DNA of 64,000 nt from Verrucomicrobiota bacterium (lineage in GTDB: Bacteria > Verrucomicrobiota > Kiritimatiellia > RFP12 > UBA1067), in NCBI GenBank assembly GCA_050874585.1, contig JBNMKZ010000004.1:7-64006 (forward strand). The letters run 5' to 3'. Below, piece after piece: positions 15,737 to 64,000 of this stretch (its first letter is position 1; every line of letters starts with the position of its first letter). A program made the translations under genes and the position numbers. The notes beneath the pieces were generated by a model. The model made no database searches. It was not told where the DNA came from and saw nothing but the letters and a program-made list of their open reading frames with translations.

Positions 15737-16945
15737 GTGGCAATGGCAGCGCAGAAGAGAGATTATTACGAGGTTCTTGGCGTCGCGAAAGATGCGACGG
15801 CGGATCAGATTAAGTCCGCCTACCGCAAGCTCGCGATGAAGTATCATCCTGACCGCAATCCCGACGACCCATCGGCCAAGGAGAAGTTCTCCGAGATTTC
15901 CGAAGCCTACGAGGTCTTGTCGAATGCCGAGAAGCGTCAGCGGTATGACCAGTTCGGCCATCAGGGCGTGAACTTCGGGCCGGGAGGCTTTGACTTCAAC
16001 CGCGATTTCTCGCATTTCCAGGATGTGGACTTGGGTGATATCCTCAATTCCTTCTTTGGTGGCGGGGCTTCATTCGGAGGTGGCGGCGGATTCTCCAGCT
16101 TCTTTGGCGGTGGCGGCGGCCGTGCGCGTCGTGCCGACCCAGAGGGACCGCGCCGTGGGGATGACCTCACCTATCGGTTGGACATTGATTTTGACGAGGC
16201 GATTTTCGGCAGTGAGCGGACGATTGACCTGACGATTCCGGGGCAGTGTCCCGATTGTCATGGTACGGGCGCGGCGGCTGGTTCGAAGCGCGTCGTTTGC
16301 AAGACCTGCCAGGGGCGTGGCTCGATTGTCGCTGGGAGTGGATTCTTCCAGGTTCGGCAGACATGCCCGACATGCGGTGGTGAAGGCTCAATTATTGAGA
16401 AGCCCTGCAAGAAGTGCCGCGGAACGGGGCAGGTTGCGACGCCGTCGCACATTTCCCTGAAGATTCCGGCGGGTGTCGACACGGGTTCGCGCCTGCGCCT
16501 TGCTGGCAAGGGTGCCGCCGGTTTGCGCGGCGGTGAAAATGGCGACCTTTACGTGCTACTGAACGTTCGCGAGAGCGATCTCTTTGAGCGTGACGGTCAG
16601 GACTTGTTTGTTGATGTGCCGGTTTCGCCCATTGTCGCCGCCCTCGGCGGGACGATTGACGTGCCGACTCCAGACGGCGCGGCGCGGCTGAAGATTCCTG
16701 CGGGAACTCCCAATGGCAAGACGTTCCGCCTGCGCGGCAAGGGTGTGCCGAGCCTTCGCGGCGGATTCGCCGGCGACTTGGACGCACGCGTCGTCTTCGA
16801 GGTCCCGGCGAATCTTGATCGCAAGCAGAAAGCCGCGCTTGAGGAGTTCCAGAAGTTGGCGACATCAAGCACGTTCCCTGAAGCGAGTTCGTTCACGAAC
16901 AAGGTAAACGTTTTCTTCGCGCACAAGAAGAAACTCGGCAAATAG
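15737..16945 (+). CDS. dnaJ: molecular chaperone DnaJ
   Basis: J domain with HPD, a G/F-rich linker and four CxxCxGxG zinc-finger repeats. Confidence 0.95.
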
Positions 16946-60920: not shown

Positions 60921-61039
60921 CGGCACACGGGAAGGGTCGGTTTGAGCCGGCCGAGGCCTGCGGGCGAACCACGGAAAGGCGAAGGGTGGTTTTTAGCCGC
61001 AAGGGACGCAAAGGTCGCAGAGAGTGGGGGAGAGAGGCC

Positions 61040-61353
61040 CCACCGCGCAGGCGTGTGAAGGCGCGAGCGCGGCAGTTTGGGTGGCCTGCCGGACGGCAGG
61101 CCGGCAAGACCATTTGCCGCGTTTTGGCCTGTGGTCAGCCTGTTCCTTCTCTCGGGCGAGGGGGTGCGCGCGAAGTGTCGCGAGTGAGGTCTTCCGCGGG
61201 GCGCCACCGTAGGAGTTGTTTCGTCCGAAACCAGCCGTCTTGTCGAGGCTGGACAGGCTAAGTAAACTTTTGTTGCCCAGGCGCGAGAGGTGAGCGCAAC
61301 CGTGGAAGCCGAGACCGAGCGACAGCTTCGCGCAAACACACGAGCAAGCGGTT
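61040..61353 (+). repeat. long repeat copy C (diverged, roughly 87% identical to A in the core)
   Basis: Collinear with B, including the 5' extension. The 3' half GGCTGGACAGGCTAAGTAAAC...CAGCTTCGCGCAA is nearly identical. It ends directly at a TGATATAAT promoter. Confidence 0.9.
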
Positions 61354-61483: not shown

Positions 61484-61500
61484 CCCCCCCCCCCCCCCCC
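61484..61500 (+). repeat. homopolymeric tract of 17 C
   Basis: Counted directly and cross-checked against the track translation (PPPPPP). Confidence 0.95.
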
Positions 61501-61728
61501 AGTAACAGGCGCGTGTGACGGGTGGCTGAGCCACTTCTTGCCTTTTGGACTGCGGATCCTCAGGATTCTCCGTACGGTTGCCCATCTGGCACATTTTTCC
61601 TTTTATTTCCTCTCGGGGCACATAGTTGTGCCCAGGTTGGAGTTTGTACGGCAAAGGCATGCCACTTCATTTTCCCGCGTGGGCGGCGGCCTTGGAGGTT
61701 GTCGCGGGAGAAGGAATGAAAGGGGTTG

Positions 61729-62172
61729 ATGATGCACGATGATATGCGATTGAAATATATGGTGGCCAAGGGACTTGGATGCCTCAATGTTCCATGTCTT
61801 GAAGCGTGCAATGAGAGTTGTCCTTGCGAGAAACTGAAGAATTTTGTTAAGGAGGAATCTAAGAAACCTTCTGCAAATACTGCCTCTCTTGAACTTGAAT
61901 GGGTGCATGTTCCTACATGGGAAAGTGTTGGCGTTCGGTTGAAGCGCGCGATTTCGATTGGGGTTGTGCTGGGGTTGGGGATACTTTTGGGTGCTGGGGT
62001 GGTGAAGGGATGTTGTTCAAATGAGAGAGAGATTAAGGTATCTTTGTCTAAAGACGGATACCAAATTGAGCGCCGTTTTGAATCGATAGAAGATTTTGAG
62101 AAGATCGGGACTAATGACCTTCGGCGTGTCATGAACGCGCTTGAGAGCCTTCACAAATCAGGTAATAACTGA
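61729..62172 (+). CDS. hypothetical single-pass membrane protein with a Cys-rich N-terminus
   Basis: SD gaaagggg upstream. N-terminal CLNVPCLEACNESCPC and TM segment AISIGVVLGLGILLGAGVV. Lower GC than the core genes. Confidence 0.55.
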   Translation: MMHDDMRLKYMVAKGLGCLNVPCLEACNESCPCEKLKNFVKEESKKPSANTASLELEWVHVPTWESVGVRLKRAISIGVVLGLGILLGAGVVKGCCSNEREIKVSLSKDGYQIERRFESIEDFEKIGTNDLRRVMNALESLHKSGNN

Positions 62173-62202
62173 GTTTAGAGGGCCTTTCCAAGGATACTGA
62201 AG

Positions 62203-62883
62203 ATGCAATGCGAAAAAGAGCAGCAGATTACTCCTCGCGCCATCTATGAGTCATTTTGGAAATGTCGCGATCTTGAAATCAACATGCTGTGGACGCGGCT
62301 GACTTTGTTGGGCGCGTTCATGGGCTTGACCTATGCCGGATATGGTACGCTGATTCTGAAAAGCGTCGACGGCATTGGAAATTGGGATGTCTTTCATCTT
62401 GTGGCCATTGGCGCGAGTAGCTTTGGTTTGCTCTTTTCGATTCTGTGGACGACGACCGCCAAGGGGTCGAAAGCGTGGTTTGAGCGGTATGAGGCGATGA
62501 TTGCCTATTTCCAGGAAACATACAAAGACTTGGGTCTCTTTGCGAGAACGGCGGGCGAGGATCTGGTTCTCTCGTATCTTGACGATGGCAATCGAAACGT
62601 CGTCCGGCGGTTGAGGCCCCTTGACACCGATTTGTTTTCGCAGTATGCCGGCGCCTATTCGGTTTCAAAAATCCCAATCGTCATGGGGCAGGTTTCGATT
62701 GTGGCGTGGGGCGTCATCGGAATCGTCCATGCGGTTGCCTGCGTGATCGGGCGGCGCGGCATTCTCGATTTCGTCCAGAATGTTCATGTCGGGGCAATTG
62801 CCGTGGCAATGGTTGTTGTGACGGCCATCAGTGCCTGCCTCGTCTGCTCCTGTGTCGGGAGCAGCGCTTTGAAGGGGAAGTGA
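62203..62883 (+). CDS. hypothetical 4-TM membrane protein
   Basis: 226 aa. An N-terminal amphipathic region, then a TM hairpin (LWTRLTLLGAFMGLTYAGYG / VFHLVAIGASSFGLLFSILW), a soluble linker and two more TM helices. Confidence 0.65.
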   Translation: MQCEKEQQITPRAIYESFWKCRDLEINMLWTRLTLLGAFMGLTYAGYGTLILKSVDGIGNWDVFHLVAIGASSFGLLFSILWTTTAKGSKAWFERYEAMIAYFQETYKDLGLFARTAGEDLVLSYLDDGNRNVVRRLRPLDTDLFSQYAGAYSVSKIPIVMGQVSIVAWGVIGIVHAVACVIGRRGILDFVQNVHVGAIAVAMVVVTAISACLVCSCVGSSALKGK

Positions 62884-62885
62884 AC

Positions 62886-63140
62886 ATGATGCGAGTTCCG
62901 GAACATATCGTTTCATTCGGACAGAGCGCATCGGGCGATTCTGGGGGGGCGGTGCGAAAACTTTTTTATTCCCCGCGTCACTTTTCCGTTCCGAGAAGGG
63001 AATATGCAGTAGAGGATATGGAAGACTCAATCTACAAAAAATGCGGACTCGCCCTCAACTGCATTCCAATGTCCGCAGAAATTGAGTTGGCTGAATATTG
63101 CTTCGGCGTGACAAAGGAAGAATCCCATTTGATTCGTTAA
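62886..63140 (+). CDS. hypothetical small soluble protein (84 aa)
   Basis: The internal ATG 62886 lies 2 nt after the upstream stop. No recognisable motifs. Confidence 0.45.
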   Translation: MMRVPEHIVSFGQSASGDSGGAVRKLFYSPRHFSVPRREYAVEDMEDSIYKKCGLALNCIPMSAEIELAEYCFGVTKEESHLIR

Positions 63141-63225
63141 TTCTGCAAAAACAAGCGATGTATAGATTCGCCCTTGTCTGGTCGCTTGCAAAATACATAA
63201 GGGAAACAGCATAAAGGAAGTCGCT

Positions 63226-64000
63226 ATGGTTAAAGAAACAACAATGGCAGAAGAAGAAGTAGGTGCTGCCATCACGCAAGGTGGAAACCCTGTAAATAAT
63301 AGCAAAGTTGATCTTACCCCAAGACTTGTTAAGGAACCGGCGGCAATTGCAAAACTCTGGGAGAAAATTGATGTCCGCCGGGGATCCTTTGAGATTCCGC
63401 GCCTGCGAAAGGACGGGTTCGTAGAGATGAACCTTGCCGGAACTGGAATTGAGAAGGCCATGTATGCACTTGGCAAGCCAGGGATTAAAGATATTATCAG
63501 TGTAGAGGCGATGGTATTCCCATGTGTTTCCATAGCCCAGAAGGTCGCTGCTGATCTTCGGTGGTATGAAAGGCTGAGATTCAAACCAAAGGATCGAACA
63601 GATTTGATTCCGCTAGCCAAAAATCAAAGGGATTATCGCGATCCGTGGTCAGATGGTAAATTCCCATCTTTTGAAGGCAAGACCTCTGGTAGTGAAATAA
63701 TTCCGCAATCATGTGTTTTGGATGATTGCCCTGCTTGCGATGGCGAGGGTACTAAACTTGGTAAGGTCTTTCAGGGACAAAAAGACAGAGGTTGGATTAC
63801 GTGTCGGCACTGTGATGGTACTGGGAAAGAAGGTGCATTGCTTTGCGATCATTGTCAGGGCCACGGAGGTTGGTATTCTCGTAGTCAAGTCAACCAGTAT
63901 GCCACGCAGCAGGTAAAGTGCGACAAATGCGATGGCTCCGGGAAGTTGCTGGCGGTGTTAAAGGCTCACAAGCAGGTGGATACGTATGAGAAGTTCGATT
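63226..64000 (+). CDS. hypothetical protein with four DnaJ-type CxxCxGxG zinc-finger repeats; 3' end beyond the window
   Basis: Not in the ORF track because no stop occurs within the window. SD aaaggaag precedes ATG 63226. Hand translation gives 258 codons without a stop, with CPACDGEG, CRHCDGTG, CDHCQGHG and CDKCDGSG at 63727-63941. Confidence 0.7.
   Translation, partial: MVKETTMAEEEVGAAITQGGNPVNNSKVDLTPRLVKEPAAIAKLWEKIDVRRGSFEIPRLRKDGFVEMNLAGTGIEKAMYALGKPGIKDIISVEAMVFPCVSIAQKVAADLRWYERLRFKPKDRTDLIPLAKNQRDYRDPWSDGKFPSFEGKTSGSEIIPQSCVLDDCPACDGEGTKLGKVFQGQKDRGWITCRHCDGTGKEGALLCDHCQGHGGWYSRSQVNQYATQQVKCDKCDGSGKLLAVLKAHKQVDTYEKFD

Follow-up and report, generated by a model that had tools for sequence, protein, structure and literature searches.

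A rare membrane protein of gut Kiritimatiellae with a DnaJ-type zinc-finger domain modelled as an insert in an unrecognised alpha/beta domain

The last gene of the analysed stretch of DNA (hereafter the window; 64,000 nucleotides from a Verrucomicrobiota bacterium, corresponding to G000:C4:7-64006 on the source contig) encodes a rare, real membrane protein of 594 amino acids from gut Kiritimatiellae bacteria. According to a structure model, the protein carries a DnaJ-type cysteine-rich (CR) domain inserted within a large alpha/beta domain that has no recognisable relatives, followed by a basic linker and a C-terminal membrane anchor. The architecture is new, and it is built partly from known modules (the DnaJ CR domain and a TM2-like anchor) placed around the unrecognised domain.

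The first 258 codons of the gene lie in the window (63226..64000, + strand). Software translation from the ATG at 63226 yielded 258 residues without a stop, in agreement with the hand translation of an earlier sequence-only reading, and revealed neither a missed stop codon nor a frameshift. A Shine-Dalgarno-like sequence, AAAGGAAG, is located five bases 5' of this ATG (63213..63220, + strand), as that reading had also stated. The frame is 3'-open in the list of open reading frames (ORFs) because it is cut by the window edge; on the source contig it stays open past this edge and ends at a stop after 594 codons, so that the full gene occupies L002:5233-7017, equivalent to 63226-65010 in window numbering. 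Extension along the contig, which the sequence-only reading had proposed, thus supplied the complete ORF including a C-terminal quarter with the linker and a three-helix anchor. Full-length relatives of 552-601 amino acids align end to end with the 594-aa protein, and three of them (P0012, P0014, and P0017) have the same full-length architecture; a chance ORF or a frameshift fusion is thereby ruled out. The six-frame list additionally contains the antisense ORF of 197 amino acids already noted at 63027..63620 (- strand). As it is the + strand frame that is kept in the relatives, this ORF most likely just shadows the conserved gene opposite.

The CR domain comprises residues 163-242 (63712..63951, + strand) and is supported by the Pfam model PF00684, a PDB profile search, and hhalign. 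It contains the four CxxCxGxG motifs that had been recognised by eye, namely CPACDGEG (residues 168-175; 63727-63750), CRHCDGTG (residues 193-200; 63802-63825), CDHCQGHG (residues 207-214; 63844-63867), and CDKCDGSG (residues 232-239; 63919-63942), all on the + strand. PF00684 (DnaJ_CXXCXGXG) scored 38 bits with the window fragment and 33.7 bits with the full protein, both above the gathering score of 32.7, and was the only Pfam family matched by the full protein. The PDB profile search with the 594-aa protein retrieved the CR domain of DnaJ (1exk, E 1.3e-7) and anti-TRAP (3lcz, E 4.3e-7) and nothing beyond CR-domain proteins, and NCBIfam, PHROGs, and PADLOC gave weak matches only, all restricted to the CR segment. 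The genome also encodes a genuine DnaJ at the position given by the sequence-only reading (15737-16945, + strand); in it an HPD motif, a G/F region, and all four CxxCxGxG motifs are present. When the profile of the new family was compared by hhalign with this DnaJ, the two aligned over DnaJ residues 164-233 only, with a probability of 96% and an E-value of 2.7e-9, the homology being limited to 62 aligned CR columns. Because all four motifs aligned in register, they form one complete CR domain and not the four separate zinc fingers that had been proposed. All cysteines and glycines of the four motifs, the eight cysteines included, are invariant among 18 relatives. The motifs are spaced by 25/14/25 residues, and those of Escherichia coli DnaJ by 17/22/14. 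The CR domain of DnaJ has two zinc centres, and by analogy that of the 594-aa protein should hold two as well.

The sequence on both sides of the CR domain was modelled with AF2, using an alignment of 18-21 sequences as input. The model of the whole protein reached a pLDDT of 74, and residues 25-462 refolded alone reached a pLDDT of 82 and a pTM of 0.71. In these models, the sequences before and after the CR domain form a single alpha/beta domain with long beta-hairpins and a few helices. Its N-terminal part, supported by the model and by invariant columns, covers residues 27-162 (63304..63711, + strand) and includes a long beta-hairpin and a conserved D-P-W-x-D-G-K-F-P stretch (residues 139-147), whereas its second half starts at 63952..64000 (+ strand) and continues outside the window to residue ~462. 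The CR domain emerges between the strands 155-167 and 240-260, and the model thus shows it inserted at the tip of a hairpin inside a domain of ~435 residues. The sequence-only reading had assumed a novel N-terminal domain fused to zinc fingers; the unrecognised domain was borne out, but the fusion was not, as the modelled domain continues for another 220 residues behind the insert. Like the zinc ligands, P99, W141, D143, F146, E350, and W416 are invariant across the family clusters. Among the polar residues in a set of 18 sequences, D139, W141, D143, and E350 are kept completely or almost completely, whereas R359, R362, and D418 are shared by the closer ten. Judged from this conservation, the acidic residues D139, D143, E350, and D418 could mark a catalytic site instead of a binding surface.

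No relative of the alpha/beta domain was recognised by any of the approaches used. The sequence flanking the CR domain had no match in Pfam, NCBIfam, PHROGs, PADLOC, or the PDB. Foldseek comparison of the full model with the PDB gave TM-scores below 0.13, and a wide VIA-align search with the full model was filled by hits to the helical anchor. When residues 25-462 were searched separately, Foldseek against the PDB again gave TM-scores of at most 0.13 with a best E-value of 5.8e-3, and the exhaustive wide VIA-align search peaked at a Z of 4.6, with no hit of 5 or above, which is below the usual background of this method (Z = 7-8). The best Foldseek hits of this segment were pore-forming leukocidins; they were rejected as noise caused by the long hairpins. 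A second look with VIA-align and a search of BFVD aligned only the finger, and the ESM Atlas contained no usable match. The best structural matches of the CR segment in the second look were BSD2 (Z 3.8) and anti-TRAP (Z 3.5-3.7), and DnaJ structures matched over the CR part only (7zhs, Z 2.5; 6jzb, Z 2.2; 1exk, Z 2.5; Foldseek and VIA-align). The impression that the first ~165 amino acids are unrecognisable was thus confirmed at the level of families and folds, although weak or missing matches do not prove a new fold.

The C-terminal part of the protein, which lies outside the window, begins with a K/S-rich linker (residues 463-492) that is disordered in the model and contains 13 K/R and no D/E. 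It is followed by a modelled TM2-like helix pair (residues 493-540, in which A-K-R connects a helix at 493-515 to one at 519-540), an acidic loop (residues 541-561), a third helix (residues 562-583), and a C-terminal tail, KKDGNGNRM, which is conserved as KKDGxGNRM in the relatives. The second helix passes the hydropathy threshold and the first stays below it; the charge pattern fits two-span and three-span readings equally, leaving the topology ambiguous. The anchor alone matched Pfam TM2 (PF05154) with an E-value of 0.031 and 14.9 bits, below the cut-off of 27.9 bits. Among 14 short members of the anchor family, four matched Pfam TM2 (best E 6.5e-4), and an 85-aa protein of a related genome (in locus L077) bridges the two groups, with a match to Pfam TM2 (5.9e-12) as well as one to the anchor profile (3.2e-8). 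On these grounds the anchor is regarded as a probable divergent relative of TM2, below the formal Pfam cut-off, with an added third helix and a conserved tail. A C-terminal sorting signal of the exosortase or sortase type was also considered for the tail and was ruled out, as the family members have no signal peptides.

A profile-free search of 1.84 billion representative sequences found 79 proteins, about 60 of which share only residues ~480-594 with the 594-aa protein. Some of these anchor-only proteins consist of the anchor alone; in the others it is joined to Sel1 repeats, FGE-sulfatase, GYF, zinc ribbons, or multiple fingers. One of the fusions, P0081 (1516 aa), joins the TM2-like anchor to an FGE-sulfatase domain, which is the usual occupant of the slot beside the 8xMP genes described below. 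The core domain is shared by ~17 representative clusters, all of them unnamed and drawn from ENA, Logan, or JGI metagenomes, with one to three contigs each. They comprise the core clusters P0008, P0012-P0017, P0019, and P0020 and a more distant core set (P0018, P0021-P0023, and P0025-P0027). In the order, the full protein was detected in only one of 319 species genomes, 116 of which belong to the same genus, and this one was the genome under study; in a sample of the class it was found in 1 of 201 genomes. A scan of GTDB genomes returned only gut and rumen Kiritimatiellae metagenome-assembled genomes, with paralogues sharing the anchor or the fingers only. Neither a tblastn search of phage and plasmid records nor a search of viral contigs yielded a match to the 594-aa protein, on which grounds a common phage or plasmid protein was rejected, and a scan of JGI metagenome contigs with core-domain patterns found nothing.

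The paralogues with Sel1 repeats and fingers (e.g., L005:7983-9479, L011:1135-2952, and L033:40-1911) share with the 594-aa protein the anchor (45-57% identity over ~115 residues), DnaJ-type fingers, and the lineage, but in place of the alpha/beta domain they contain Sel1/TPR repeats together with as many as about a dozen fingers. Their operon, also conserved, is a different one. In five loci (L027, L032, L033, L034, and L011) a paralogue with Sel1/TPR repeats, many CxxCxGxG motifs, and the same anchor is followed by a conserved gene for an N-terminally anchored coiled-coil protein of ~270 amino acids, and in three of them (L027, L033, and L034) a gene for a membrane protein of ~180-195 amino acids is also found downstream. 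Neither of the two accompanying proteins belongs to a Pfam family, and these loci look like a second uncharacterised operon type in the lineage.

The gene of the 594-aa protein is the last of four + strand ORFs in a low-GC operon. The first gene (61726..62172, + strand) encodes a protein of 148 amino acids with one transmembrane (TM) helix, a 39%-identical homologue of which is encoded directly upstream of 8xMP in genome G510. The second (62203..62883, + strand) encodes a multi-TM protein of 226 amino acids that belongs to the 8xMP family (PF24838, Pfam E 4.5e-18). The third ORF, of 84 amino acids (62886..63140, + strand), starts two bases after the 8xMP stop and lies inside the gap of 343 bases that separates the 8xMP gene from the gene of the 594-aa protein. 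This orphan has no family match, its only match among 5.8 billion proteins was its own sequence, and it could represent either a new micro-gene or spacer DNA without coding function. The GC content of the island is 0.45-0.54, compared to ~0.6 in the flanks. The gene of the 594-aa protein has a GC content of 0.47 and a GC3 of 0.48; the two genes that follow have a GC3 of 0.82, and dnaJ has one of 0.69. Its composition is foreign, and the gene is taken to be accessory and horizontally acquired, as the sequence-only reading had proposed for the operon. Upstream of the island are a tRNA-Met gene, an IS4-type transposase gene, and a gene for a low-molecular-weight phosphatase, and downstream are oxidoreductase and AMP-ligase genes. 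The island is bracketed by GC-rich direct repeats of 152 nt, found in a repeat search on L002 (family D1), with the left copy at 61021..61172 (+ strand) and the 91% identical right copy outside the window (L002:7272-7423, equivalent to 65265-65416). These repeats belong to an intergenic repeat family with further copies in the window. The interval from a TGATATAAT box to the first island gene contains an unbroken tract of 17 C (61484-61500), at which strand slippage could, going by the sequence, switch the operon.

With at least 183 clusters, the relatives of the 8xMP protein far outnumber those of the 594-aa protein; in the order, 21 of 319 genomes contain an 8xMP gene. Twelve 8xMP loci were inspected, including the present one (window 61726-62883; L025, L070-L079). 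The cassette region is mostly low in GC, and in all 12 loci a small ORF with 1-2 TM helices precedes the 8xMP gene and a variable gene follows it. A gene with an FGE-sulfatase domain, coding for an exported protein, flanks 8xMP in six of the 12 loci (downstream in five and upstream in L072); the variable gene encodes a BspA-LRR protein in one locus and an Lcl_C protein in another, and is unrecognised in others. Relatives of the 594-aa protein or of the 84-aa ORF were absent from the other 11 8xMP loci of the order, and both are therefore considered to fill an exchangeable slot. Since the metagenomic contigs of the family relatives do not coincide in size with those of the listed close 8xMP homologues, the pairing of the gene with 8xMP may be an accident of insertion. 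A literature search on 8xMP and PF24838 found nothing relevant.

Genes of the TM2 type are rare in the genomes of these loci (0-3 per genome). One such gene (L077:831-1088) lies 0.6 kb from the 8xMP gene in G540, which has one TM2 copy, and another (L025:8925-9308) lies 3.4 kb from the 8xMP gene in G145, which has three. Counting the gene of the 594-aa protein, a TM2-type protein is encoded within 3.5 kb of 8xMP in three of the 12 loci; these are small numbers from related genomes, and the pattern hints at a possible link between the two large families.

The 594-aa protein resembles type I DnaJ proteins in its CR domain (PF00684; 1exk in E. coli DnaJ), where the four motifs align co-linearly with their counterparts in the DnaJ of the same genome, and in the insertion of this module within a beta-rich domain. 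It differs from DnaJ/Hsp40 type I proteins in lacking both the J domain and the G/F region. J-domain families were absent from the Pfam matches at E <= 0.1 for the full protein and at E <= 1 for the window fragment, and the translation contains no Gly/Phe-rich segment, which is present in the own DnaJ. The host domain is not recognisably one of the C-terminal beta-sandwich domains (I and II) that flank the CR domain in DnaJ, as fold searches align the CR part only, and its modelled 24-residue helix and long hairpins are unlike DnaJ domains. Membrane anchoring is a further feature that sets the protein apart from DnaJ. The earlier judgement that it lacks a J domain and a G/F region and is not a DnaJ paralogue is thus upheld by Pfam and by the restriction of the hhalign match to the CR domain.

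CR-type fingers without a J domain are known from anti-TRAP (2bx9, 3lcz), BSD2 (6ekb), FIP, OR, and CYO1. The last three combine the finger with a membrane anchor, as does the 594-aa protein, and act by binding partners (PMC5915565). However, these proteins are small, with the finger making up approximately the whole soluble part (in FIP with two motifs only), and they show no sequence relation to the 594-aa protein outside the finger; in the latter, the finger is set within a domain of ~435 residues, the anchor is C-terminal and TM2-like, and the host is a gut bacterium. The sequence-only reading had called the arrangement unusual; the architecture and the domain are new, but the idea is less exceptional than that, since J-less membrane zinc-finger proteins as such are known from plastids (PMC5915565). 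Bacterial proteins with a zinc ribbon and TM2 (PF05154 with PF13240 or PF12773) follow the same plan of a cytoplasmic Cys4 module and a TM2-type helix pair, an example from a related genome being L025:8925-9308 (TM2 E 6.8e-14), and the function of TM2 itself is unknown (PMC3581485). Compared to them, the anchor of the 594-aa protein is divergent (14.9 vs 27.9 bits) and is extended by an acidic loop, a third helix, and the KKDGxGNRM terminus, and its zinc module is of the DnaJ CR type and not a ribbon.

J-less DnaJ-type zinc-finger membrane proteins bind their partners without Hsp70 (PMC5915565), and for this reason a membrane-tethered binding or adaptor module, possibly acting with an 8xMP oligomer, is tentatively favoured for the 594-aa protein by analogy, at somewhat less than even probability. 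The protein would be held in the inner membrane by its C-terminal three-helix anchor, and the large domain would face the cytoplasm, because a signal peptide is absent, the zinc ligands are thiolates, and the linker is strongly basic. The CR domain would hold two zinc ions as in DnaJ and serve as a protein-recognition surface, working like the J-less anti-TRAP, BSD2, FIP, and OR and not as an Hsp70 co-chaperone; the client binding assumed in the sequence-only reading would likewise be an analogy. The protein would occupy the exchangeable third slot of a cassette composed of a small TM protein, 8xMP, and a variable protein, and may act together with the 8xMP oligomer. For the cassette, an envelope function and a role in inter-genomic conflict are both possible.

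Other readings of the protein have to be weighed against this one. It might be a stand-alone membrane-tethered holdase or assembly factor that is functionally unlinked to the adjoining 8xMP gene, its CR domain binding membrane or secreted proteins that are unfolded or in assembly on the inner side of the membrane, in the manner of BSD2, FIP, OR, and CYO1. The completeness of the CR domain and its co-linearity with that of DnaJ agree with this idea, as do the structural proximity to BSD2 (Z 3.8) and anti-TRAP (Z 3.7), the lack of a conserved 8xMP partnership among the loci examined, and the precedent of the plastid J-less proteins (PMC5915565). A general proteostasis factor should be widespread, however, and the protein occurs in one of the 319 genomes of the order, in a low-GC island with foreign codon usage; moreover, the large conserved domain outside the CR module would be left unexplained, and we regard a holdase as rather doubtful. 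The small size, foreign nature, and sporadic occurrence of the island beside a tRNA gene and an insertion sequence, the variable slot adjoining a conserved membrane protein, and the recurrence of TM2-type proteins near 8xMP genes would also suit a subunit providing sensing or specificity in a membrane-based conflict module (e.g., anti-phage) not described before; its cytoplasmic zinc-finger domain would recognise a component of an invader and signal to the 8xMP oligomer or to its own TM2-like helices, leading to membrane damage. Yet PADLOC gave no significant match (best PDC-M01B, E 0.026, over the finger only) and none at all for the 8xMP protein, phage and plasmid records and viral contigs lack the protein, known defence genes are not adjacent, and the usual cassette partner, being an exported FGE-sulfatase-domain protein, is as suggestive of the cell surface as of defence, so that this explanation appears unlikely.

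It is distinctly improbable that the alpha/beta domain is an enzyme at the membrane with the CR domain as a purely structural or oligomerisation insert. Such a role would account for the conserved polar residues outside the zinc ligands (D139, W141, D143, and E350; R359, R362, and D418) and for the high model confidence of the strands around them, but no enzyme family or fold was matched (best Z 4.6 against the usual background of 7-8) and no known catalytic motif was seen. A divergent DnaJ/Hsp40 paralogue, for which the NCBIfam DnaJ models (E 2.9e-5 and weaker, far below cut-off) and a BLASTP alignment to the own DnaJ (24% identity over 203 residues) might be cited, is for practical purposes refuted by the absence of a J domain, HPD motif, and G/F region, by the confinement of the hhalign homology to the CR columns, which did not confirm the BLASTP and NCBIfam extensions, and by fold searches that align the CR part only. 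A non-functional or chance ORF is refuted to the same degree, given the existence of conserved full-length relatives.

The membrane-tethered binding or adaptor module therefore remains the preferred, tentative reading. A bolder version, which we consider improbable, would have a new cytoplasmic fold with a DnaJ-type zinc module act as the exchangeable sensor or specificity subunit of a membrane system made of the 8xMP oligomer and TM2-type helices and found an undescribed family; a mobile cassette of gut Kiritimatiellae would, on the same long-shot assumption, swap its third gene (FGE-sulfatase-domain, LRR, or zinc-finger) to change recognition.

Should the preferred reading be right, the protein would be the first bacterial J-less DnaJ-type zinc module in a large membrane-tethered domain, among the examples found, and would carry over to gut bacteria a design that has been explored chiefly through plastid assembly factors. 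The protein also provides a confidently modelled domain (pLDDT 82) without a match in the PDB. The organism is uncultured and the family tiny, which keeps the immediate impact modest. A recurrent three-gene cassette of low GC content, built around 8xMP and with a swappable third gene, is present in gut Kiritimatiellae, and since 8xMP and TM2 are large families without an established function, their repeated association in genomes offers a usable lead.
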